Sequence record: OQ031492
DNA: 64,000 nt
Direction: 5' to 3' (one strand)
Source of the DNA: Escherichia phage MRostami-2023b
The notes under the pieces were generated by a model. It was not told the origin of the DNA, did no database searches, and was given only the letters and a program-made list of their open reading frames with translations. The translations under genes and the position numbers were made by a program. Of the stretch, positions 10,117 to 62,819 are shown one piece after another. How positions within the stretch are numbered: position 1 is the first letter of the stretch; each line of letters begins with the position of its first letter.

Positions 10117-12789
10117 ATGTTTCCAATTCCAATATTTACTATTATGACCAGCACTGGTGTCGTTCCTCTGCCAGCAGGTATTGTTAAAAAAGTAATCACT
10201 TTAGATTACCCAGATAACGCTGGTAATTCTAACAGCAGTTTAGCAATTTTGCTTAATGATGGTAGATTGTTTACTCAAGGCGCAAACCTCTTTGGTGAGA
10301 TTGCAGATGGAACTCGTAGTGCACGATTCAATAATTTCTACTTAGCTTCTACTGTAGTAGCGGATGTGTTTACCGCAGATCGTTGTTTTGTTATTAAAAC
10401 TAACAGCGGGGGATGGCAATATTCAGGATTGACAGCAGGGTTGGTAGGATCTATAGCAGCAGGTGGTACGGATGCATGTGTAACTACTTGGACCAGCTTT
10501 CCATCTGTAATAACAGGGACTATCTCTTTAGCCAATCTTAAAGAGGTTAAGGGAGGATATAACAACACTCTCTGGTTAATGAATAGTGGTGTTCTTTATG
10601 GATCAGGTCAAAACACAGTAGGCAGTTTAGGTGCAAGTACTACTAACGAAGTTTCTACTCCTCGTCAGATAACAAGTTCAGCAGTTGCTTTTGATGCAGG
10701 TTACAACCAATGCTCTTATGTCAACAATGTGGGAACCTTGCGTGTTTGTGGAGCTAGTAAAGGTTTAGCAGGTAATAATAACACAACAACCGCTTTTGTC
10801 AATGCCACGATATCCACTACTGAAACAGTGTATGTCAAAGATTACATCAATACAGTTTCCCAGACAATAGTTGTAGGAGATACCTCCGGTGGCGCGGGTA
10901 CAGTAAACTACTTATATGTTAGATCTAATACAGAAACAACCTACACTAAACTGGACACCTTTGCAGCAGGTTTCTCAACATGGAAATTTCCACCAAGCCG
11001 CCACTCTTTTTTCGTTGGGATCAATAATTCCTTGTGGGCTATTGGTAAGAACTACACTGCAAACTTAGGTTTGGGATATGATTCTGCGAGCGGAGATCCA
11101 CTCCAAGTGGGAAAACCAGTTAAACCTGAAGGAGTGGGTTCCTGGGATATAAACAAGCTCACAAGCGTTCATACGTTGAATATGGATATTACTAACCAAT
11201 TAGGTTATCAAGGAACCTTTTTCGTTTATAACGGGGATATGTATTATTCCGGTATTTGGAAAGATGGGAAAGCCTCGTATCTGTTCAATAGTGGTCTAAA
11301 CTATAATAAATTCACACCAATAGCAAGCTCCGTGATTACGGGGGATGTTCTGGCAACTGGCTTAACTACAGATTCTTTAGGAATTTGTATTGTAGGTGGA
11401 ACTAAACAGTTGACACATTCTGTTAGCCCAGAAGGAGGTAAACTTTTCAATATTAAATACACTTCTTCTGCCCCTGCAAACATGACAATATCATCTACTG
11501 GTTTAATGACTTTCCATGCAGAAGGTGGTTTTGATGCAGGTATGACAGCCTTAAACGCTGAAGGAACAACTTTATCAGATACCTCTGGAGGATATGCTTC
11601 AACATTGAGTGTTTACACCCCTAGCTTATCTGCGATGGATGTAGGAACAACACAAACAATGGTAGCAGAAATAACGCCAACAGGAGCAGCAAGCTTACCT
11701 GGTATGGTTGTTGAGTATACAACTACAGATCCTAATGTTGCTACAGTAGATCCTACAACTGGTGTAATAACTGGTGTTGGTGATGGTGGTTGTAGAATTG
11801 GTTGCACAGCTACATATCAAGGTGTTGTTACCGCTTCTGATAGTTCTTATTTAACGGTGAACGCTGTTGCGGGAAAGGAGTTAGCTCCATCTCCGAGTAG
11901 TAGTTTAACGGTTCTAAACGGATATTTCAACCACTCGGCAGATGGGGCAATTACGTTCCCAATTTTATCGGGTACTGTCACACCAGCTAACTTTGTAGTT
12001 AAGGTGGATGACGTTGTAATACCTTCAAATAAAGTAATATTTAGAAATAAAGCTTTCTCTACAGTGGATAGTTATCCAGCAGGAGAATATAGACTGGCTA
12101 TTGAATTTGCAAGTGCTTCAGTAGTGAATAGTGTTGATGTGTCTATGGAAGCAAATCCAGATCTTTTAGAATTATGGGGCGGCAACAGAATTGGTTATTC
12201 TACAAGCCCAGCCTCACAATTCTTAAAAGGTTGTGCTAACTTAAGACGAATAACTTCTGATTGTTTTAGTAACACATCTTACACCGGAACATCTATAAGT
12301 GGTATCTTCTCTGGCTGTACAAGTTTGACAGCTATCCCTGAAGGATTATTCAGTGATGCTTTATTTCCTTCAATGACAACAATGTCAAGCACGTTTGAAG
12401 GTTGTACATCTTTAACATCTATTCCTTCAGATTTATTTAAAAATCTATCAAAAGTTACAAGATATTCTTACACCTTTAAAGATTGCACCTCTCTTGCAGA
12501 AGTTCCAGCAGGAATGTTTGATAATATTCCAACGAAAGTGACCTCTTTAACAGCTACATTCCAAGGTTGTTTAGCACTTACAGATTTTAATAAAATCTTT
12601 AATGACAACCCAGGGTTAACTGTTTGTGGTAAACGTGGAGCATTATCTTCTTTCTTTAGTGGATGCACAAATCTTACAGGAACAGGAACAACATTAACAA
12701 ATACATTAGGCGGAGTAGCTAATAGTTACCTATTCAGGTATTGCACAAAACTTTCTGATTATAACAATATTCCTTCGGGTTATAAATAA
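10117..12789 (+). CDS. Tail fibre/adhesin with Ig-like region and C-terminal BspA-type leucine-rich repeats
   Basis: 890 aa; C-terminal repeats GCTSLTAIPEGLF / GCTSLTSIPSDLF / DCTSLAEVPAGMF / GCLALTDF / GCTNLTG. Confidence 0.5.
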   Translation: MFPIPIFTIMTSTGVVPLPAGIVKKVITLDYPDNAGNSNSSLAILLNDGRLFTQGANLFGEIADGTRSARFNNFYLASTVVADVFTADRCFVIKTNSGGWQYSGLTAGLVGSIAAGGTDACVTTWTSFPSVITGTISLANLKEVKGGYNNTLWLMNSGVLYGSGQNTVGSLGASTTNEVSTPRQITSSAVAFDAGYNQCSYVNNVGTLRVCGASKGLAGNNNTTTAFVNATISTTETVYVKDYINTVSQTIVVGDTSGGAGTVNYLYVRSNTETTYTKLDTFAAGFSTWKFPPSRHSFFVGINNSLWAIGKNYTANLGLGYDSASGDPLQVGKPVKPEGVGSWDINKLTSVHTLNMDITNQLGYQGTFFVYNGDMYYSGIWKDGKASYLFNSGLNYNKFTPIASSVITGDVLATGLTTDSLGICIVGGTKQLTHSVSPEGGKLFNIKYTSSAPANMTISSTGLMTFHAEGGFDAGMTALNAEGTTLSDTSGGYASTLSVYTPSLSAMDVGTTQTMVAEITPTGAASLPGMVVEYTTTDPNVATVDPTTGVITGVGDGGCRIGCTATYQGVVTASDSSYLTVNAVAGKELAPSPSSSLTVLNGYFNHSADGAITFPILSGTVTPANFVVKVDDVVIPSNKVIFRNKAFSTVDSYPAGEYRLAIEFASASVVNSVDVSMEANPDLLELWGGNRIGYSTSPASQFLKGCANLRRITSDCFSNTSYTGTSISGIFSGCTSLTAIPEGLFSDALFPSMTTMSSTFEGCTSLTSIPSDLFKNLSKVTRYSYTFKDCTSLAEVPAGMFDNIPTKVTSLTATFQGCLALTDFNKIFNDNPGLTVCGKRGALSSFFSGCTNLTGTGTTLTNTLGGVANSYLFRYCTKLSDYNNIPSGYK

Positions 12790-12791
12790 GA

Positions 12792-12819
12792 AAAGGAGCC
12801 ATTTGGCTCCTTTCTTTTA
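12792..12819. terminator. Bidirectional rho-independent terminator between convergent gene blocks
   Basis: aaaggagcc-attt-ggctccttt hairpin flanked by A-run and T-run; genes converge here. Confidence 0.75.
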
Positions 12820-12845
12820 TAAAAACTCTTTATAGATCAATAAGA

Positions 12846-13733
12846 TCAGAATGGAATATCATCATCGAAGTCCATTGGAGGTTCTTCTTGATTACTTGGA
12901 GTTGGTTCTGGTTGTGGTTCAGGTTTTTTAACTTCTTTCTTCTCTTCTTTCTTAGGTTGTTCTGCGGAACCACGAATGGCAGCAGCAACTTTATCAGACA
13001 AAGCTAGAACTTTACGAGCAGAGTCAATCAAATCTTCTACAGATACAGTCTTAATGGTATGGTCTTTACAAGCATTGAGGATAGCGTGACCAACAGATGC
13101 CCCAAGATCATAATCATTAATGTCAACGCCACGAGATTCAGCAATTTCCGATTTCAGCGTGACAGTTGCAGATTGAACAACCCCAGCGATATCGAAAGCA
13201 TCACCTTTAACACCATTACGAATCAGTTCCAGTGCACCATTTACTGCGTGACCAGTTTCCAGACCTACAGTATCACGTTTTTTATAGGACTGCTTAGGAG
13301 CAGCATCGTTGGAACCTTTATTGCCAGAAGATTTGTTAGACTTCTGAACACCATCGGTAGACAATACTGTAATACGAGATTTTTTAGTATTGTAGTAAGT
13401 TTTACCGCCTTTATTATCAACGCGATCAATATCAATACTTACTTCTACACCTTTTTCAATAGTGATCCAATTATCACCTTCTTTGACTTGCAGGTTTTCA
13501 TAACCTTCTTTCAGTTCAATGTCACCAAGAGAAATCCAAACACCTTTCTCATCTGGTTTAGCACCTTTCTCTTTCAGAACAAGAGAAGCTCGGTGAGTTG
13601 AAACAATCGTTTTTCCTTCCCAATGAAAAGTTTTAGGTTCAGCGAATTTATCCAGTTTAACGTAGTCTACGATACCAGTTGCATAAGTTACGGTTTTGCC
13701 TTTACGATCAGTTTCAGTATTAATTACGGACAT
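12846..13733 (-). CDS. ssb: Single-stranded DNA-binding protein with E. coli SSB-type acidic C-terminal tail
   Basis: 295 aa; C-terminus ...PPMDFDDDIPF identical in type to bacterial SSB-Ct; Pro/Glu/Lys-rich linker before tail. Confidence 0.6.
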   Translation of the reverse strand: MSVINTETDRKGKTVTYATGIVDYVKLDKFAEPKTFHWEGKTIVSTHRASLVLKEKGAKPDEKGVWISLGDIELKEGYENLQVKEGDNWITIEKGVEVSIDIDRVDNKGGKTYYNTKKSRITVLSTDGVQKSNKSSGNKGSNDAAPKQSYKKRDTVGLETGHAVNGALELIRNGVKGDAFDIAGVVQSATVTLKSEIAESRGVDINDYDLGASVGHAILNACKDHTIKTVSVEDLIDSARKVLALSDKVAAAIRGSAEQPKKEEKKEVKKPEPQPEPTPSNQEEPPMDFDDDIPF

Positions 13734-13749
13734 TATTATCTCCTCTACA

Positions 13750-14142
13750 TTACATTAATTTTGCACAGAAAGAGCGGAGTCTTTCCATATCATCTTGCTC
13801 TAACAGGTATTTACCTTTACCTATTCCAACTCCAATTTCACCATTAGGGAAATGAACTATTTGCACTGGAAAACCTCCGAGTTTAATTGTGGCAGCTTTG
13901 CCTTCTTCGTCTATAACGTTTCGGATTGTATCTTGCAGTGAAATGAATTCTTTGTTTGTAACAGTGGTTTCAATTATTTCAGATGTTTCAACACGAGCAG
14001 TTAGCTTCTTGTTTCCACCTTGAATAACCAAAATTTGAAAATAAAAAGAGTTGTCAAGACCTACAACATTTTTCTCAACTAGTGTCAAACTGGTATAGTT
14101 TCCATAAACAGTTTCAACAGCTATCTTAGAACGTTCAGTCAT
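13750..14142 (-). CDS. Hypothetical protein
   Basis: 130 aa ORF in replication operon. Confidence 0.4.
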   Translation of the reverse strand: MTERSKIAVETVYGNYTSLTLVEKNVVGLDNSFYFQILVIQGGNKKLTARVETSEIIETTVTNKEFISLQDTIRNVIDEEGKAATIKLGGFPVQIVHFPNGEIGVGIGKGKYLLEQDDMERLRSFCAKLM

Positions 14143-14187
14143 TGAATGCTATCCTATCATAAAATGTTTAATATTGTCAAGCTTTAA

Positions 14188-14781
14188 TTACCAAGGAATA
14201 TCCTCTTCTTCCAATCTGGTATCTACTTGAGGTGGACGTGGAACCTTAACCTCTTTCACAAAACGAAGATATGGGAAACGTGTAGCAATTTTAATAACGT
14301 GTTTGGCATCTTCTCTAACGTCTTTGTGCAAGAAGCAGATCCCTGTTTCCAAGGTTGTTTCAAAATCTTTAGAATAATAACAATCCTTCCCATCAAATGC
14401 AGCCTGGCAGATGGACAGATCGAACTCATTTAGAAAGGTTGTCATTACGCTTGGTTCCATAATCATAAGGTTGCAAAGCTGACCATCACGTTCAAACTCA
14501 AAAACGTGTTTAAGACCAGTAACACCTTCATAATTGTCAGAAGCCTCTTTGTTTCCTAGTTTACGAATATTGGTTCCCATTAAAGCAGATGCAATTAATC
14601 CTTGTATTTGTTCTTCAGTCCGATGTGCAGGAAGGGATGTATAGAAATCAAGATCACGTCCAGCAATATCAAGAATACGCCAATCACGAACAGCACCGCC
14701 AGCCAAGACAGAATTAGGATCAGCGATCTTTAATACGGTAAGAATTTCTTTGGCAATATTGATTTGTTTTGATTTAGTCAT
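14188..14781 (-). CDS. Pol-beta-superfamily nucleotidyltransferase (CCA-adding-enzyme head-domain-like) with SSB-tail-like C-terminus
   Basis: VLAGGAVRDWRILDIAGRDLDFY matches GGxVRD...DxD nucleotidyltransferase motif of class II tRNA nucleotidyltransferases; ends ...EEEDIPW. Confidence 0.5.
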   Translation of the reverse strand: MTKSKQINIAKEILTVLKIADPNSVLAGGAVRDWRILDIAGRDLDFYTSLPAHRTEEQIQGLIASALMGTNIRKLGNKEASDNYEGVTGLKHVFEFERDGQLCNLMIMEPSVMTTFLNEFDLSICQAAFDGKDCYYSKDFETTLETGICFLHKDVREDAKHVIKIATRFPYLRFVKEVKVPRPPQVDTRLEEEDIPW

Positions 14782-14992
14782 TGATACGCTCCACAGTTAC
14801 TTTTACAACATCATCCATATTAATCTCATCCCCCAAGACCTCAATAACACCTTCCTCATAAAGTCGAGCACATTCTTCCCACACTTCAGCTTCCGTCATT
14901 CCACCTGCAATCTTATTTGCAAGACCTTTAATAACATCTTCATTTTGTTCATCAACAAGAATTGAAACATTAAAGCTCACTAATTTACGCAT
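14774..14992 (-). CDS. Hypothetical protein
   Basis: 72 aa ORF, start overlaps downstream gene. Confidence 0.35.
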   Translation of the reverse strand: MRKLVSFNVSILVDEQNEDVIKGLANKIAGGMTEAEVWEECARLYEEGVIEVLGDEINMDDVVKVTVERIND

Positions 14993-15169
14993 TGTTTTCT
15001 CCTTATACTTCTAAACGGAAAGTTTCTTTAGATACAAAATCGTATCCACCTTTTTCAAGCCAGTCATTGTAAACCTCATCGGCTTGAGACTCTATCATAA
15101 AATACCGAGTGGTAACTTCGTCTCCGACAATACGCACAATTTTATAGCAAATCATGATACCATTTCCCA

Positions 15170-15362
15170 TTAATCTTCCTCCAGATCAATTTCATTATAA
15201 CAATGTATACAGAAACCATCATTGTGCATATGTTGTTCATAAGACATATCTTTACCACAAGACCAACAACGGATATCCCCATCGTCCCATTCACGTTCTT
15301 CTTCGCCTTCAAATTCATCTGGTAGGTAAGGCATACCAAAATAATCTAAATCGTAACTCATA
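15170..15362 (-). CDS. Small zinc-ribbon protein
   Basis: Start re-set to ATG after RBS aggaga (MSYDLDYFG...); CWSCG...CIHC Cys pairs; 9 N just upstream. Confidence 0.4.
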
Positions 15363-15410
15363 TCTTCTCCTANNNNNNNNNAGAAACTCCTTAAAAAGCA
15401 ATAGGTTAGA

Positions 15411-18400
15411 CTAATGGCAACTGGCCCAGGAATTTCCCACGTCATATCCAGCAGTAAGCTGAACATTAAGATTGTAAAATTCTCCAGCCTTAGTAACAGC
15501 TAAAGCAGCAAGTTCACCTGCCCGACTATAAGCTGTAAACCATCCACCTTTGGGAGATTCATGAATGTTAGCCCAAATTTGCCCTGTCTCTTTTTCCTTA
15601 TTATGCTTCCATTCTTCGACTTTAGCAAGGCATTCTTTATCAATTTTCTTTTGTTCTTCAGGATCGTCTACTTTCTTCCAACCTAATGATTCAGGTGAAA
15701 ACCATTTGAATTCTACAAGGTTACGAGAAACTTCAAGCTGGGCTTCATCGTGGTATGCAATCATTTGTTGCACGAAGTCTTTATTCTTCCAGTCATCTTT
15801 AAAGAAGTCAACACTTAGCCCTTCTTCTTCGATCATGTCATCATAAATAACCATTGCACGTTTAGCACAGATAACCCCACCGCTTTGGAACAGAGAGTTA
15901 AGAATCGCGTGAGCAGAACGAGTAGGAACCTTACGACCGTCAATACCCAAAACATATTGTTTACCAGTCTTAACCCAAAAATCGTTTAAACGTTCTTTAA
16001 GACGCGCCAATGGGAATGCAGCTTCCCAGAAAGCATCAAACACCAATTGACCTGTAAACTTATCGCTACCAATTGTTTTAGCAACCTTGTCGGCTTGTGC
16101 ACCATAGGTAATACCATACTTAACAGATTTAGCAGGACTACGTTCAAATTTACGTCCAATAGTTTCAGTGATACGTTTTGCCATCATTGTGTGAACATCG
16201 TTAGGTTTCTCTAACAACAGAGCGTTACAATATTCGTGTGGCTCCGGCTCGTACCGCCAACAGTTNNNNNNNNNNNNNNNNNNNNNNNNNNNNNNNNNNN
16301 NNNNNNNNNNNNNNNNNNNNNNNNNNNNNNNNNNNNNNNNNNNNNNNNNNNNNNNNNNNNNNNNNNNNNNNNNNNNNNNNNNNNNNNNNNNNNNNNNNNN
16401 NNNNNNNNNNNNNNNNNNNNNNNNNNNNNNNNNNNNNNNNNNNNNNNNNNNNNNNNNNNNNNNNNNNNNNNNNNNNNNNNNNNNNNNNNNNNNNNNNNNN
16501 NNNNNNNNNNNNNNNNNNNNNNNNNNNNNNNNNNNNNNNNNNNNNNNNNNNNNNNNNNNNNNNNNNNNNNNNNNNNNNNNNNNNNNNNNNNNNNNNNNNN
16601 NNNNNNNNNNNNNNNNNNNNNNNNNNNNNNNNNNNNNNNNNNNNNNNNNNNNNNNNNNNNNNNNNNNNNNNNNNNNNNNNNNNNNNNNNNNNNNNNNNNN
16701 NNNNNNNNNNNNNNNNNNNNNNNNNNNNNNNNNNNNNNNNNNNNNNNNNNNNNNNNNNNNNNNNNNNNNNNNNNNNNNNNNNNNNNNNNNNNNNNNNNNN
16801 NNNNNNNNNNNNNNNNNNNNNNNNNNNNNNNNNNNNNNNNNNNNNNNNNNNNNNNNNNNNNNNNNNNNNNNNNNNNNNNNNNNNNNNNNNNNNNNNNNNN
16901 NNNNNNNNNNNNNNNNNNNNNNNNNNNNNNNNNNNNNNNNNNNNNNNNNNNNNNNNNNNNNNNNNNNNNNNNNNNNNNNNNNNNNNATCGCCAAACAGTA
17001 GTGTGATTCAATTTTTGCTTCCAAAGAGTCGAAGTCGTAGCCGATCTGGAAGTATTTAGGAACTTCTACACCAAACAAGTTACGCATCTCCCATCCAAAC
17101 AAAGATGTGACACGAGGAATATTAGCTACAGATCTATGCTTCATACGAGAGGTTGCAGCATCACATGTAGCGGCTGGGGTAGGAATACGCCCATCCGCCC
17201 TTACTGCGGCTAAGAAACCTTTGTCATATTCTTGATCTTCCTCATCTTCTTCCCAATCAGCACCACCGCCTAAAATAGAGTTTCTACGATGCTTATACGT
17301 TAAGTATTCTACAATCTGTGTAGCATAAGGGAATTTCTCACCTAAAGCTTGCAGGTTAGGACAGATTTCTTTTTCCTGACCTTTGGTAAAACATGGGTTA
17401 GTCAATACTTTAAGACCGCGACCCTTACCTTTTGCTATACGCTCTTGAATCTTCCTTTCCAAGGTTTCCGGTGTGCACTCCAGATGATCACAACGGTCCT
17501 GACAAAAATTAGAAGATAGAGTTTGCTCAACGTAAGCTCGAATACCTTTCTGAAGTTCTTCCTCGCTCTTTTTAATCTTGGTGCCAGATTTAAGAGTCAA
17601 GTCTTTATCTTTATATTCAGACGGTACCCAACCTAATCCTACAAGCCAGTTTTTAATATGGGTTGTATCGTTCAATGTTGCAGGGATGTTAGGATCACAC
17701 AGAGGCTCATCTGCTGCAACTGGCAGTTTCCACTCTTTCCCCAACATAACTAACCACCAATCGCCATCCCTCTCTTCCAAATGACCATCATGTTTCTTAG
17801 CAAAATTGATCATATGGTTAGTTGGCTCTAAGTTCTTTTTAATTTGCAACTTAGGTGGAATAAAAGCTTTAAGATAACCTTTTGTTGCTGGTTTAGGTGG
17901 CAAAATAGGCTCAACGAGTAAACGAAGACGCTCCATTTCTGCATCCAAAAAAGCAAGGTTCTCTTCTGCTTGTTTCATGTTAAAAGCAAACCCACGGTGT
18001 TCCTGGCGTGTAATAATGTCTGCTACACGTTGTTCAAGTTCAAATGGACCTTCCCATTTATCATAATCACCCCATTCTTCCATAAGGTAATTATATACGC
18101 TCGTATTGGCTTTGTTGTCATAGATACAGTAATAAAGCATATCCGCAGCAAAAGTCTTAAATCGATCTTCTTCTGGAATCTCTTTACGGAAATCTATTTT
18201 TACATCACCACCTGCTTTTCGAGAAAGTGCTGCCAAGCTATGTCCTGATTTGCCCTCAATCTTTCGATCTGGGTTTAACACTTTACTCAAAATCAAGGAG
18301 TCAATAAGTTTTACCTTATTTTTGCCCCACGTATTATATTTAACACTGTAATCTAATCCATAAAACAGTTTTGTAGCCAACCAGTCGTAGTTGATACCGT

Positions 18401-18743
18401 TGTGAGCCACAGCCATTTCAACCAGATATTCAGGCTTGTCTTTAAAATAACCTTCATGATTAATAAAATCTGGGAAATCTTTTAGTTGAAAATGTGTGTA
18501 ATCTTGCGCCACATACTCTTTAAGAACATATGTGTATTTACCATCTGACTCTTCATAAGGACGCCCATCAAAGATGTATTTAGGGCCATCGTGGAAAGCT
18601 ATTATTTCTCCTGTTTCATGGTTCTCTAAGACAATACAGTGCATTTGAAATGTGTCTTTGAGACGATAAGGACTAGCTAAATAATCAATAGTGTCATTAT
18701 TCAACAATCCGTTTGCTTCAATATCCCATGTAAACTTACTCAC
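15411..18743 (-). CDS. DNA polymerase, family A (PolI/T7-like) with N-terminal 3'-5' exonuclease; interior masked by 721 N
   Basis: Exo I motif WDIEANGL; motif B RSPAKSVKYGITYGAQ; motif C HDEAQLEV; 1110 codons including N run 16266-16986. Confidence 0.85.
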   Translation of the reverse strand: MSKFTWDIEANGLLNNDTIDYLASPYRLKDTFQMHCIVLENHETGEIIAFHDGPKYIFDGRPYEESDGKYTYVLKEYVAQDYTHFQLKDFPDFINHEGYFKDKPEYLVEMAVAHNGINYDWLATKLFYGLDYSVKYNTWGKNKVKLIDSLILSKVLNPDRKIEGKSGHSLAALSRKAGGDVKIDFRKEIPEEDRFKTFAADMLYYCIYDNKANTSVYNYLMEEWGDYDKWEGPFELEQRVADIITRQEHRGFAFNMKQAEENLAFLDAEMERLRLLVEPILPPKPATKGYLKAFIPPKLQIKKNLEPTNHMINFAKKHDGHLEERDGDWWLVMLGKEWKLPVAADEPLCDPNIPATLNDTTHIKNWLVGLGWVPSEYKDKDLTLKSGTKIKKSEEELQKGIRAYVEQTLSSNFCQDRCDHLECTPETLERKIQERIAKGKGRGLKVLTNPCFTKGQEKEICPNLQALGEKFPYATQIVEYLTYKHRRNSILGGGADWEEDEEDQEYDKGFLAAVRADGRIPTPAATCDAATSRMKHRSVANIPRVTSLFGWEMRNLFGVEVPKYFQIGYDFDSLEAKIESHYCLAXXXXXXXXXXXXXXXXXXXXXXXXXXXXXXXXXXXXXXXXXXXXXXXXXXXXXXXXXXXXXXXXXXXXXXXXXXXXXXXXXXXXXXXXXXXXXXXXXXXXXXXXXXXXXXXXXXXXXXXXXXXXXXXXXXXXXXXXXXXXXXXXXXXXXXXXXXXXXXXXXXXXXXXXXXXXXXXXXXXXXXXXXXXXXXXXXXXXXXXXXXXXXXXXXXXXXXXXXXXXXXXXXXXXXXXXXXXXXXXXXNCWRYEPEPHEYCNALLLEKPNDVHTMMAKRITETIGRKFERSPAKSVKYGITYGAQADKVAKTIGSDKFTGQLVFDAFWEAAFPLARLKERLNDFWVKTGKQYVLGIDGRKVPTRSAHAILNSLFQSGGVICAKRAMVIYDDMIEEEGLSVDFFKDDWKNKDFVQQMIAYHDEAQLEVSRNLVEFKWFSPESLGWKKVDDPEEQKKIDKECLAKVEEWKHNKEKETGQIWANIHESPKGGWFTAYSRAGELAALAVTKAGEFYNLNVQLTAGYDVGNSWASCH
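16266..16986. other. Masked sequence (721 N) inside DNA polymerase gene
   Basis: N run. Confidence 0.9.
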
Positions 18744-20047: not shown

Positions 20048-20072
20048 TTTTAATAAAAGGGCCGAAGCCCTT
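20048..20072 (-). terminator. Hairpin terminator after primase-helicase
   Basis: aagggc-cgaa-gccctt stem-loop followed on minus strand by U-rich tract. Confidence 0.5.
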
Positions 20073-21849
20073 AATAGTTGCTATCCGTAGGCAAATTAGC
20101 AGGATTGTTGAAATACTGCTCTTTGTCATGCAGGGTTGCAGTTCTAATGTCATAGTAAAACTGCCCTGCCGGACCAGTTTCCGAGAACTCACGGTTTTTT
20201 AGGATAAAACAATGAGTCGTATTGCGTTCTACAGGGTCTTCAGCGGCTTTATCTCGTTCCAAAGCCAAGGTAATACCAGCACCTTTAGCCAAGAAACTAC
20301 TACCCATTGCATCGTCCTCTGTTAAGTGTTCATTGCCACCATTAGCCGATTTCTTAACGTGTGAGATGACGATAATAGTTATAGCATACTCTTTCATGAT
20401 GCGCTTCAACCATGTTGCTAACTCTTCCTGGGCTTGAACATCCATACCAGAAAGCAAATCAGAATAAGGGTCGATAACAAGAATTGTTACTCCAAAATAG
20501 ATGATCATCTCCAAAACTTTTTCTTTGATAGACTCCACATCTGCTCCACGATCATCACACACATAAAAACGTGGTGATCCATCTTCTCTTTCGTAAAAAT
20601 CTAGGATTTTTTCTTTATTCTCTTCCAAGATTTGAAATTTCTCTTCCGGTGTTTTCCTGTGTAGAGGAATATGCAGGAACGAGGACAACAGGTTACGAGA
20701 ATATTTCTTATAAGTTGCTTCCAAGGATAAAATGCCTAGGGTATGTTCTGGGTGCGCAACAATAATATGTTTGGTGATCTCGTTCACCATCAAAGTTTTA
20801 CCGATACTGGTCTTTGCCAGGATGACGGTAATCTCTTCCTCTACTAAACCACCACCCAGCATATTTGCAGCAACACGCATAAAAGGAGGCAAGGTAATCA
20901 TCTTGGATTCCAAGCATTCTAATGCGGCTTCATACAAGACATTAGAAGCATAAACACCTGCTGGGGTGTATAGACGAGCACTCCAAAAAGCTTTTACGAA
21001 GTCTTTTGCACGACCTTCTTCCAGATATTGATTGGCATCCTTAAGATCCATCTGCATACGGTAGACTTTGTTACGAGGCAGCACCTTAACAATATTTTCA
21101 AATGCCTCATTACCAGCTTTGTCATTATCCATGCAAACAATAATCTTCTTAAATTTTTCAAAGAAGGGATATTGTGCCTGAACTTGTTTATACATACTGG
21201 TTTCACCAGTTGTGCCACTAACTACTGCTGGAAGTTCATATTTGTTGTCCAAGTTTTCAGACAGCATTTGATAAGCTGCCAGAGCATCGTGTTCACCACC
21301 TGTAATTACCACAGTATGAGAACGGTCTGCAAAACGAATTTGTCCAAAAAGATCTACATCTTTACCTACTTGACCAATAGGTTTACTGAAATCTTTAGGA
21401 TGAATACGACGCTTAAAACCAACCAATTCTTTACCGATAGTAGTTGGATATAAACAACTTTCTACTACCATCTGATCCCCTTCCTGACGGTATTCATAAC
21501 GAACACCATAGAAAGATGAAACTTTTTCTTTAATACCTCGATAACCACGTGGGTTGGTTGATGTTTCTTGAACAATTTTACGATGAATCTGTTTATTAAA
21601 TTCCGAACCCACAATCTCCTCCTCTTCTTCTAAAACTTCACCATTTTCTCGTAACCATTCTACGCTAGGAATAGTGTATTCACACGCAAAGCACTTAGCA
21701 CCTTTATGCTCTCCATTAGAATCTAATCCATAAACCATCAGGTTATTACGAGAGCGATCCTTGCCATTTTTCATGCAGCGCGGACAACCTGTATGCCCTT
21801 CCTTGCTAAGATCAACATCAAATCCATATTTAGTTATAATGTGCGACAC
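20071..21849 (-). CDS. Bifunctional primase-helicase (T7 gp4-like)
   Basis: N-terminal Cys4 zinc ribbon (CPRC...CFAC), TOPRIM-like CMDNDKAG, Walker A AKTSIGKT in C-terminal helicase domain. Confidence 0.8.
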   Translation of the reverse strand: MSHIITKYGFDVDLSKEGHTGCPRCMKNGKDRSRNNLMVYGLDSNGEHKGAKCFACEYTIPSVEWLRENGEVLEEEEEIVGSEFNKQIHRKIVQETSTNPRGYRGIKEKVSSFYGVRYEYRQEGDQMVVESCLYPTTIGKELVGFKRRIHPKDFSKPIGQVGKDVDLFGQIRFADRSHTVVITGGEHDALAAYQMLSENLDNKYELPAVVSGTTGETSMYKQVQAQYPFFEKFKKIIVCMDNDKAGNEAFENIVKVLPRNKVYRMQMDLKDANQYLEEGRAKDFVKAFWSARLYTPAGVYASNVLYEAALECLESKMITLPPFMRVAANMLGGGLVEEEITVILAKTSIGKTLMVNEITKHIIVAHPEHTLGILSLEATYKKYSRNLLSSFLHIPLHRKTPEEKFQILEENKEKILDFYEREDGSPRFYVCDDRGADVESIKEKVLEMIIYFGVTILVIDPYSDLLSGMDVQAQEELATWLKRIMKEYAITIIVISHVKKSANGGNEHLTEDDAMGSSFLAKGAGITLALERDKAAEDPVERNTTHCFILKNREFSETGPAGQFYYDIRTATLHDKEQYFNNPANLPTDSNY

Positions 21850-60905: not shown

Positions 60906-61190
60906 ATGAAAAAGATGATCGCAGTAGTTGCCCTGGTTGTTGGTATTAACGCGCCTGTACTGGCTAATGAGTTGCCAGAATCCATCACGTTAACCGATAT
61001 TAACGCAGTGAATCGGATCGGTGTTAATTATCGCCTATGCCTTGCCGCTAAAACTTTCCAGGACGGCACAACAGAGTACTACGGATTCGAGGGTATCCGC
61101 TGCGGTGAGCTTTCACGCGACCTTAAGGAAGATCCAGACCTTGAGGCCATACCGATGACCGTAAACGGTAAAGCCCACGTAAACCGCTAA
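60906..61190 (+). CDS. Small secreted protein with signal peptide
   Basis: MKKMIAVVALVVGINAPVLA…. Confidence 0.4.
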   Translation: MKKMIAVVALVVGINAPVLANELPESITLTDINAVNRIGVNYRLCLAAKTFQDGTTEYYGFEGIRCGELSRDLKEDPDLEAIPMTVNGKAHVNR

Positions 61191-61192
61191 CC

Positions 61193-61327
61193 ATGAGAAA
61201 GGTAATCATCACAATGGGGATCGTAGTAGCAACGCTGGCGCTTATCCCTTTCATGGTTGAACATGTGCTGATCAATGTTGTCCTGGTAGTCAGTGACCTA
61301 TTGGAAACGGTTGGCAACTGGTTTTAA
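61193..61327 (+). CDS. Small hydrophobic membrane peptide (not in ORF table)
   Basis: 44 aa MRKVIITMGIVVATLALIPFMVEHVLINVV…. Confidence 0.3.
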   Translation: MRKVIITMGIVVATLALIPFMVEHVLINVVLVVSDLLETVGNWF

Positions 61328-61335
61328 GATAATAA

Positions 61336-61362
61336 ATAGGGCTTGCAATAGTCCTATTTTTT
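61336..61362 (+). terminator. Rho-independent terminator
   Basis: atagggc…gtcctat stem followed by tttttt. Confidence 0.5.
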
Positions 61363-61501
61363 GTTATACTTATTGAACGGGCGGCACCTGGGAGCAGGGG
61401 AAGATAATCACCAGAAGACCCCGCTATATATTGATAACTAACGCCTATCAAACAACAAAACATCAAAGGAACAAACTATCAAATCTTTACAATTCTACCT
61501 A

Positions 61502-61551
61502 TTGACACCGGATCACGCTTACATTATTATTTATCACGTAGGGCGAGAATG
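61502..61551 (+). promoter_or_regulatory. Promoter (TTGACA-17-TATTAT) plus start of leader, truncated by N run
   Basis: ttatcacGTAGGGCGAG then masked. Confidence 0.45.
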
Positions 61552-61825
61552 NNNNNNNNNNNNNNNNNNNNNNNNNNNNNNNNNNNNNNNNNNNNNNNNN
61601 NNNNNNNNNNNNNNNNNNNNNNNNNNNNNNNNNNNNNNNNNNNNNNNNNNNNNNNNNNNNNNNNNNNNNNNNNNNNNNNNNNNNNNNNNNNNNNNNNNNN
61701 NNNNNNNNNNNNNNNNNNNNNNNNNNNNNNNNNNNNNNNNNNNNNNNNNNNNNNNNNNNNNNNNNNNNNNNNNNNNNNNNNNNNNNNNNNNNNNNNNNNN
61801 NNNNNNNNNNNNNNNNNNNNNNNNN
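61552..61825. other. Masked sequence (274 N) bounded by near-identical promoter-leader copies
   Basis: Both flanks read attattatttatcacgtagggcgag. Confidence 0.8.
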
Positions 61826-61874
61826 TCATGTTAAATTATTATTTATCACGTAGGGCGAGCAATACAGCAAGCCC
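61826..61874 (+). promoter_or_regulatory. Second copy of -10 plus leader element (-35 masked)
   Basis: tattat-ttatcac-gtagggcgagcaatacagcaagccc. Confidence 0.4.
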
Positions 61875-61891
61875 ACAAAGAGGAAAAGAAG

Positions 61892-62260
61892 ATGAGCAAA
61901 TCAGCAATTAAAGCAGTTGAAAAAGCGCAAGAAGTGATCGCAACGTCCACCACTGGCGCAAAGGTTAATCTCGTTGGTTATCTGACAGATGAAACTATCC
62001 GTAAAAATTGGCGTAATGCTGATTTACTGGCTTGCTTATTGATTAATAGTGTCGCTAATGCTTTCCAGTGTGAAACAGCCGAGAGCCTGGAGGAAAACTT
62101 GTTTGATAATATGGATCAAGCCATTGAAACCTATATACAATCAAACCTGGATAGCTGGAACAGTAAAACATGGCCCGACAATTTACGCGATACAACTGAT
62201 CAACTGATCCGCCTTGCTGTGATGGTTGAACGCGATAACGTTTACAACAGCACAAAGTAA
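61892..62260 (+). CDS. Small early-type protein
   Basis: 122 aa. Confidence 0.4.
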   Translation: MSKSAIKAVEKAQEVIATSTTGAKVNLVGYLTDETIRKNWRNADLLACLLINSVANAFQCETAESLEENLFDNMDQAIETYIQSNLDSWNSKTWPDNLRDTTDQLIRLAVMVERDNVYNSTK

Positions 62261-62269
62261 GATTATACA

Positions 62270-62290
62270 AGGGCGCACCAAGCGCCCTTT
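62270..62290 (+). terminator. Hairpin terminator (weak U-tract), same stem as 62828-62861
   Basis: agggcgc-accaa-gcgccct. Confidence 0.4.
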
Positions 62291-62325
62291 AACGTAAAGA
62301 AATGTAAATAATGCGCTATCCCCTA

Positions 62326-62354
62326 TTGACAGGGGATCGGCGTTATATTATATT
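62326..62354 (+). promoter_or_regulatory. Sigma70-type promoter (TTGACA-17-TATATT) with -35 embedded in palindrome
   Basis: atcccctaTTGACAggggat inverted repeat around -35. Confidence 0.45.
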
Positions 62355-62399
62355 TAACTCACTGGCAGCAAACAACGAAACGAAACAAAGGACAATACC

Positions 62400-62819
62400 A
62401 TGAACATTAAATCAAATAATCCAGCTTACTCCTTCGATAACGCTTTTTGTCACGGTAGCGCCGCCAAAGGCTTCGAAATCGATGGTAAATTGGTTATCGT
62501 GAACGTTGACGGGGAAGAGGTTGCAGTATATCCGGTAAACGATGTTAAAAGCCGTTTACAATGCCGCATGGATGTTACCGCGTATCAGCTTGATCCGATC
62601 CGTGTAGTTGCCCTGGTCCTGGAAGAAGAGATCAAAGCAATGCATCATAGTAACAAGTTTATTGGTGACGCGCAGGACAATATGAAAGTATGCCGCAGTA
62701 AAGTTAATGAAGCCTTGAAAGAATGCGGTTTTAAGGATCTGATGATTAAACGTGATGAAAAATTCCGCTTTCGTAATGACCTGGCGAACCGGATCTACTC
62801 AATATATGAAGCGTTATAA
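62400..62819 (+). CDS. Small early-type protein
   Basis: 139 aa. Confidence 0.4.
   Translation: MNIKSNNPAYSFDNAFCHGSAAKGFEIDGKLVIVNVDGEEVAVYPVNDVKSRLQCRMDVTAYQLDPIRVVALVLEEEIKAMHHSNKFIGDAQDNMKVCRSKVNEALKECGFKDLMIKRDEKFRFRNDLANRIYSIYEAL

Follow-up and report, generated by a model that had tools for sequence, protein, structure and literature searches.

The stretch of DNA analysed here (64,000 nucleotides of Escherichia phage MRostami-2023b, sequence record OQ031492; hereafter the window) belongs to a Phapecoctavirus, a phAPEC8-like E. coli myovirus of ~150 kb from the Stephanstirmvirinae, and is 98-99% identical to the phages SF1-1, ETEC-TG and anhysbys. On its minus strand, at 14188..14781, lies a complete gene with an ATG start, read from both the list of open reading frames (ORFs) and the DNA itself, which encodes a protein of 197 amino acids (aa) followed by a stop codon. 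The protein is a small nucleotidyltransferase (NTase) whose C-terminal tip resembles that of SSB, the protein that binds single-stranded DNA, and copies that are 97-100% identical to it occur across 64 Phapecoctavirus genomes. The gene and its rough classification are already in the databases, where related records label it 'nucleotidyltransferase' or 'putative tRNA nucleotidyl transferase / poly(A) polymerase', and the fold class can be guessed from the motif; literature searches returned nothing relevant on the phAPEC8 NTase or on phage enzymes that mimic the SSB tip, and no report of the tail was found. What is new is that the NTase belongs to a replication-module family related to Gad2, an inhibitor of the Gabija defence system, that the label 'tRNA nucleotidyltransferase' is unsupported, and that one lineage of the family has gained a conserved mimic of the SSB tip.

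A previous inspection of the letters alone (the sequence-only reading) had picked out in this ORF the motif GGAVRD…DLD and a terminal EEEDIPW, and both were borne out by the translation and by reading the DNA: residues 28-33 are GGAVRD, residues 43-45 are DLD, and the protein ends in …RLEEEDIPW (the C-terminal stretch, within the last 10-20 residues, being …VDTRLEEEDIPW), with the stop codon (14188-14190) directly after W197. The predicted folded catalytic core (residues 1-176; 14254..14781, minus strand), assigned as a class II NTase head with the start of the neck from an AlphaFold2 model and its fold matches, contains motif A (residues 27-47, AGGAVRDWRILDIAGRDLDFY; 14641..14703), in which the nucleotide-binding Gly-Gly and two metal-binding Asp residues are marked by family conservation. 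The core is followed on the same strand by a Pro-rich variable linker (residues 177-190; 14212..14253), delimited by a drop in model confidence and by variation among homologs, and by the tip EEEDIPW (14191..14211), a conserved and directly readable sequence that we regard as a putative docking motif of the SSB C-terminal type.

The sequence-only reading had suggested a profile and structure search, which did find an NTase fold. The protein matches phrog_10174 (E 6.5e-63) and phrog_1614 (E 3.9e-11), both labelled 'nucleotidyltransferase', and an AlphaFold2 model built with an alignment of 132 diverse family members reached a mean predicted local distance difference test score (pLDDT) of 93, with 10-residue blocks over residues 1-180 at 81-98 and the last 20 residues falling to 76 and then 57; an earlier run with 12 close homologs had been poor (pLDDT 65.6). 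The fold matches of the model were CCA-, CC- and A-adding enzymes and E. coli poly(A) polymerase (Foldseek, E about 4e-5; template modelling score 0.55 normalised to the query and 0.28 normalised to the target), and they span 160-200 residues of targets of 370-450 aa, i.e. only the head and the start of the neck. As modelled, the NTase hence stands alone as a head of the class II (CCA-adding / poly(A) polymerase) type, to which only the beginning of the neck is joined. Single-sequence searches against the PDB and Pfam gave nothing but chance matches or a sub-threshold match to PolyA_pol (PF01743; 13.8 bits, E 0.077, under the 23-bit gathering threshold), whose best score within the NTase family was E 0.0011.

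Compared with class II CCA-adding enzymes and bacterial poly(A) polymerase I (PDB 1miv, 3h37, 3wfo, 4wby, 3aql), the NTase has under half the size. Motif A of the class II enzymes (GGxxRD then DxD, in a Pol-beta-type head) is present, but the body and tail domains, which bind the acceptor and T-arm of the tRNA, are not found in the 197 residues. Sequence similarity is restricted to ~40 residues around motif A, and because hhalign of the family profile against E. coli Cca aligned motif A only, motifs B and D were compared by eye. In the by-eye register, the RRD of the motif B region of Cca (DLKRRDLTINALA) falls on N-E-F-D of the NTase (LNEFDLSICQAAF), and the EDPLR of motif D (EDxxR) falls on EDAKH, with the arginine replaced by histidine. 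Among the 132 sequences, positions 118-121 in the motif B region are not conserved and the motif B arginines are not kept, and neither are positions 157/158 of motif D, where only H/Y161 and K164 are retained. In CCA-adding enzymes the RRD of motif B serves ribose recognition, and the EDxxR of motif D is the amino-acid template for C and A. The proposal of the sequence-only reading, a CCA-adding-like NTase for tRNA repair, therefore stands for the fold class, given the confident model and its fold matches, and looks unlikely for tRNA repair, given the missing body and tail domains and the loss of motifs B and D. Another protein of this kind, the bacterial 2LA3 (NP_344798.1, Streptococcus pneumoniae), is a 191-aa stand-alone 'CCA-adding enzyme head domain' protein, which is not detected from the NTase at the sequence level and whose entry title carries no hint of a replication context or an SSB-like tail.

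A profile search over 1.84 billion cluster representatives (E<=1e-3) placed the NTase in a family of 1,043 clusters, mostly of 185-215 aa. In the alignment of 132 members, G28, G29, D43 and D45 are invariant, A27, A30, R32, D33 and W34 are at least 90% conserved, and Y84 and K164 are also nearly invariant; besides motif A the family keeps F120, S123, C125, H/Y161, K164 and F169-P170. Because the metal- and nucleotide-binding residues of a Pol-beta-type transferase are strongly constrained, the protein looks like an active enzyme, and the conservation pattern points to a catalytically intact one. The family appears to be essentially phage-restricted: a scan of cellular genomes (one genome per species, 185,579 species) by an exact peptide pattern, which undercounts, gave six matches, each of them on a metagenome-assembled contig and thus perhaps in phage DNA. 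A scan of the longer members, which are extended at the N- or C-terminus, showed no informative fused domain. ORF223 of Vibrio phage ICP1 (L003 2956-3375) is a shortened homolog of 137-140 aa that consists of the head domain only and ends inside the F-x-x-S-x-C motif, and in some ICP1 records two hypothetical proteins lie under the match, a possible sign that the gene is split or decaying.

Of the relatives tested, the N-terminal NTase domain of Gad2 (Pfam PF26128) is the closest in sequence, closer than any CCA-adding enzyme, and for no relative other than Gad2 has a biological role been demonstrated. Two Gad2 sequences were taken from the supplement of 10.1101/2023.05.01.538930, namely that of Bacillus subtilis B4069, which is a few residues off the protein of Bacillus phage SPbetaL7, and the experimentally verified homolog of a Brevibacillus prophage. 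Against these, hhalign aligned the family profile with a probability of 94.7% (E 6e-8) over 122 columns, pairing residues 11-153 of the NTase with 16-140 of Gad2. Both proteins are phage-encoded and share the motifs AGGA, D-x-D-x-Y and F-D-x-(S/T)-x-C, while they differ in the continuation of the first (AGGAITS in Gad2, AGGAVRDW in the NTase), in length (Gad2, with 394-400 aa, is about twice as long) and in setting, as Gad2, which is without an SSB-like tip, is encoded in an anti-defence locus and the NTase in a replication operon. PF26128 also stands, marked 'faint', in the precomputed Pfam list of the 60%-identical homolog P0009, and it appears, with no mark of strength, for about half of the listed family members.

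Many small phage proteins of the same fold are found in BFVD, including 'nucleotidyltransferases' of the Autographiviridae LKD16, phiAS7, PP2 and Ninurta. The phenotypes reported for relatives are limited to toxicity, as in the small Autographiviridae NTases, and, in the distant relative Gad2, to Gabija inhibition. Gp22 of Klebsiella phage fHe-Kpn01 (182 aa), a CCA-enzyme-like protein, is toxic in E. coli on overexpression (PMC7291057); its gene directly follows that of the DNA polymerase, gp21, and hhalign against the NTase family profile aligns motif A only. The NTase gp22 of P. putida phage Emajogi is cytotoxic, has homologs annotated as 'Gabija anti-defense Gad2 family' and, by gene number, adjoins the primase/helicase gp23 (10.64898/2026.09.15.751885). 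Both are replication-module NTases of the same fold class without the IPW tip. Klebsiella phage KP34 has no member of the family near its polymerase.

The tip of the NTase shares its layout with E. coli SSB (…MDFDDDIPF), i.e. a folded domain, a variable and disordered linker, an acidic/aromatic tip and a free carboxylate, the differences being that it ends in Trp rather than Phe and that it sits on an enzyme and the SSB tail on an OB-fold protein. Of the stop-to-stop frames in the 64 kb that reach at least 40 aa, two alone, those of the NTase and of the SSB-like ORF, end in I-P-aromatic after acidic residues; a third frame ends in WEENF. The tip (D/E)-D-I-P-W recurs in all NTase homologs from 97% to 58% identity, with DDSFPW as the one exception, while the 12-20 residues before it vary in length and sequence among the same homologs (58-97% identical). 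Since the tip is kept down to 58% identity while the linker varies, it is not a chance ending. Within this close clade, the NTase always ends in Trp and the SSB-like protein always in Phe. The homolog of Citrobacter phage Tr1 (36% identity) ends in KPKDIPW after a 28-residue linker, and outside the close clade tips of the type IP[FWY] are found in five of 256 members (P0016, P0121, P0160, P0109, P0034), for instance PDDIPW, SNDIPW, DDGIPF, KPIPF and ESIPY, where ~0.3 would be expected by chance (a rough estimate from residue frequencies). Roughly 10% of the family end in some acidic plus aromatic motif. Comparable tails are known from replisome proteins other than SSB, as gp4 of phage T7 shares the SSB-type acidic, Phe-terminated tail and docks on the polymerase with it. 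T7 gp2.5, too, has an acidic tail at its C-terminus that docks on the polymerase (PMC12339929). In the loci related to that of the NTase, primase-helicases often end in …NDVAEF or …DEVHEF and SSB-like proteins in DDDIPF.

Tips of the I/V-P-W type, like that of the NTase, were also seen on proteins of PHROG 862 (223-248 aa) in marine phage replication loci (L037 2134-2805; L031 727-1416; L046 7807-8544; L084 7705-8451), which end in KDKDIPW, GDDVPW or GEDTPW; the primase-helicases of these loci end in acidic residues plus Phe (…NDVAEF). The 223-aa …DIPW family of the marine loci was considered as a gp2.5-like SSB and rejected, as it has no Pfam match and matches only PHROG 862, labelled 'unknown', and for this reason it is unusable as an argument that IPW marks an SSB tip.

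The NTase gene is part of a minus-strand operon in the order primase-helicase, methyltransferase-like gene, DNA polymerase, three small ORFs, NTase, ORF130 and SSB-like gene, and this gene order recurs in Justusliebigvirus and in Citrobacter phage Tr1. The T7 gp4-like primase-helicase (20071..21849, minus strand) matches phrog_239, 'DNA primase/helicase', at 2.4e-164. The family A DNA polymerase upstream of the NTase (15411..18743, minus strand) is called DNA polymerase I in related genomes, its L097 ortholog matches PF00476, and the middle of the gene is masked by a run of 721 N at 16266-16986. A 72-aa ORF (14774..14992, minus strand; phrog_25475) overlaps the start of the NTase gene by 8 nt. 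At the other end, a terminator scan found a bidirectional terminator-like hairpin (12791..12814, both strands) with a perfect stem of 9-10 bp and T-runs on both strands, which closes the operon and separates the SSB-like gene from a convergent tail-fibre gene on the plus strand (10117-12789).

The replication setting extends beyond the close relatives, and it is consistently in DNA-replication modules that the NTase is found. The family profile recovered 80 viral-contig loci, and their neighbouring ORFs were clustered (counts over 75 loci): the commonest neighbour is a T7 gp4-like primase-helicase (47 of the 75, usually just upstream), the second commonest a family A DNA polymerase (42 of the 75, usually just downstream), and flap endonucleases, HNH endonucleases and SSB-like proteins come next. 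After dereplication at 90% identity, a recognisable replication gene lies within 5 kb in 38 of 55 loci.

The last gene of the operon (12846..13733, minus strand) encodes the SSB-like protein of 295 aa. The sequence-only reading had placed an SSB gene with the tail DDDIPF two ORFs away from the NTase, and this ORF does end in MDFDDDIPF, with one ORF (13750..14142) in between. Its designation as SSB, which several records share, fits the tail and not the body: only the last ~27 residues match SSB, the 12-residue end EPPMDFDDDIPF being identical to that of E. coli SSB, while the body of 250 residues has no SSB or OB match in Pfam or NCBIfam and falls into PHROG 4477, 'unknown function'. Judged from these matches, the protein may have a novel ssDNA-binding fold or may be another protein that borrows the host SSB tip. 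A free C-terminal carboxylate is normally needed for SSB-tip binding; the SSB-like proteins of phages PaulScherrer (L001 5026-5973) and Tr1 (L002 5064-6035) run 15 residues past DDDIPF/DEDIPF (…APIGLQYGRNFLHCF), so that their IPF is internal and without a free carboxylate. The ORF in between, ORF130 (13750..14142, minus strand; 130 aa), matches phrog_16560 (unknown function; 1.1e-76) and takes the same position between the NTase and the SSB-like gene in PaulScherrer and Tr1; its neighbour cluster (cluster 5) occurs in 10 loci at a median distance of 44 bp downstream of the NTase, which makes it a candidate partner of the NTase or of the SSB-like protein. None of the NTase, ORF130 and the SSB-like protein has a match in the PADLOC defence library.

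On this evidence, replicating DNA is a more likely place of action for the NTase than tRNA. The reading that we favour is a composite, which we judge about evenly balanced between right and wrong, of an active Gad2-like NTase that its mimic of the SSB tip would hold at the replication fork or on SSB partners, where it would protect or assist replication. The enzyme would be expressed as part of the DNA-replication operon, and its tip would plug into a pocket that normally receives the SSB tip, located either on a host SSB-interacting protein or on the phage polymerase or helicase, in the manner of the T7 gp2.5 and gp4 tails. Docking would concentrate the NTase at SSB-coated replication intermediates. 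There, nucleotide transfer by the enzyme, either onto the 3' end of a DNA or RNA or onto a partner protein, would protect or assist phage replication, possibly against nuclease-helicase defences that sense DNA ends, Gabija being an example. In a sharper version, which is speculative and seems doubtful to us, the SSB-tip mimic would deliver the NTase to host SSB-interacting proteins or to DNA ends where forks are coated with SSB, and by nucleotidylating a protein or capping a 3' end the enzyme would blind DNA-end- or SSB-sensing defences such as Gabija. If true, such tip-delivered blinding would provide the Gad2 class of anti-defence enzymes with its first mechanism and would mean that phages deliver a modifying enzyme via the SSB interaction hub.

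Several observations weigh against the tethered, Gad2-like enzyme. Regarding the tail, ~90% of the family have no such tip, and because most of the family do without it, tethering would be dispensable for the core function; the NTase tip E-E-E-D-I-P-W, in which acidic residues precede I-P and an aromatic residue, ends in Trp and not in Phe; and in the sister clades, where the SSB-like protein next to the NTase retains DDDIPF or DDDVPF, the NTase tips are EEFKI (Justusliebigvirus) and, elsewhere, FMDEI, WTDEI or DVFNF, which are not SSB-like. As the NTases of the sister clades have no SSB-like tip while the SSB-like protein keeps IPF, a co-evolving phage partner is favoured over conserved host pockets, which weighs against the hint of the sequence-only reading that the NTase shares the docking partners of SSB, and the NTase tip may be tuned to a phage-specific pocket. 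Regarding the enzyme, its core is acidic (isoelectric point 5.8; family median 6.2), a poor fit to direct polynucleotide binding. Regarding Gad2, its C-terminal ~260 residues are not in the NTase, which ends 44 residues past the aligned domain; our own Pfam scans gave no PF26128 match for the NTase or for 10 family members, although the library may lack the model; and the mechanism of Gad2 is still unsolved (PMC12904381), hence the homology supplies no function for the NTase.

The wider interest of the family lies in its abundance, as small CCA-enzyme-like NTases are among the commonest unexplained genes of phage replication modules, with ~1,000 clusters in the NTase family alone. The widespread annotation 'tRNA nucleotidyltransferase / poly(A) polymerase' is corrected here, since the sequence features do not back the label. 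The SSB-tip-like tail of the Phapecoctavirus lineage is an experimental handle, offering a short peptide as bait for partners and a clean tail-deletion mutant, and the identity of the partner would help to show where such enzymes act and on what.

The tethered enzyme has to be weighed against other explanations, of which one keeps the Gad2 relationship and drops the replisome: the NTase would be a Gad2-type anti-defence enzyme, and its tail would be a decoy that competes with host SSB for repair or defence proteins, or would have no docking role. The profile homology to the N-terminal domain of Gad2 speaks for this explanation, as does the position of the host-inhibitor genes 5.5 and 5.9 of T7 beside its polymerase gene, and so does the toxicity of Gad2 and of small phage NTases on expression (10.1101/2023.05.01.538930; PMC7291057). 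It has to cope, however, with a place between primase-helicase and polymerase that is kept across very different phages, unlike the variable gad1/gad2 anti-defence islands, and with the absence of the Gad2 C-terminal domain from the NTase, and we consider it unlikely on balance. It is improbable that the NTase is a template-independent RNA-tailing enzyme of the poly(A) polymerase kind, which would tag Okazaki primers, or RNAs of the host or the phage, for degradation. It is very improbable that the NTase makes small nucleotides (cyclic or linear oligonucleotides) which, as signals or decoys, disturb host signalling defences: a small acidic enzyme would suit a small-molecule substrate, and competitor cyclic dinucleotides are a known product of some phage NTases (10.1101/2022.06.09.495361). 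The MNT-like cyclic-dinucleotide NTases of that work, one of them from phage Av05, were tried as relatives and rejected, their motif being GS-x-AY[GAN]T-x4-SDxD as against AGGAVRDW…RDLDFY here.

That the NTase is a minimal enzyme for adding CCA to tRNA or repairing its 3' end, with which the phage counters host nucleases aimed at tRNA, is the view suggested by the sequence-only reading, and we regard it as highly improbable. This view draws on the class II CCA-adding enzymes among the best fold matches, on a motif A of the GGxVRD…DxD type, on the 'putative tRNA nucleotidyl transferase / poly(A) polymerase' of public records, and on the tRNA genes (11 found) and the RNA ligase/phosphoesterase pair that the phage carries elsewhere in its genome. 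On the side of the protein, it is opposed by the missing body and tail domains, the non-conserved RRD and EDxxR, the acidic core and a PolyA_pol score that stays at 13.8 bits against the 23-bit cut-off. On the side of the genome, the 64-kb window holds no tRNA gene, and in the closely related ETEC-TG, which has an identical NTase, the 11 tRNA genes lie ~40 kb from the NTase and in another transcription unit, whereas the NTase is inside the replication operon; moreover, CCA is encoded in the DNA of all 11. In 42 of 48 related phage loci there is no tRNA gene within 5 kb, and many carriers of the family are contigs of podovirus size (45 kb). In ETEC-TG, an RNA ligase gene adjoins a phosphoesterase gene (L087 11080-12565, record 61080-62565) ~5 kb from the tRNA cluster, and this pair looks like a separate RNA-repair module and a more natural home for tRNA repair.

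Among related genomes, the polymerase of PaulScherrer has an annotated intein, and in the close genomes SF1-1 and iGC_PHA_EC001 an HNH endonuclease gene is inserted in the stretch that matches 12800-15500 of the window.
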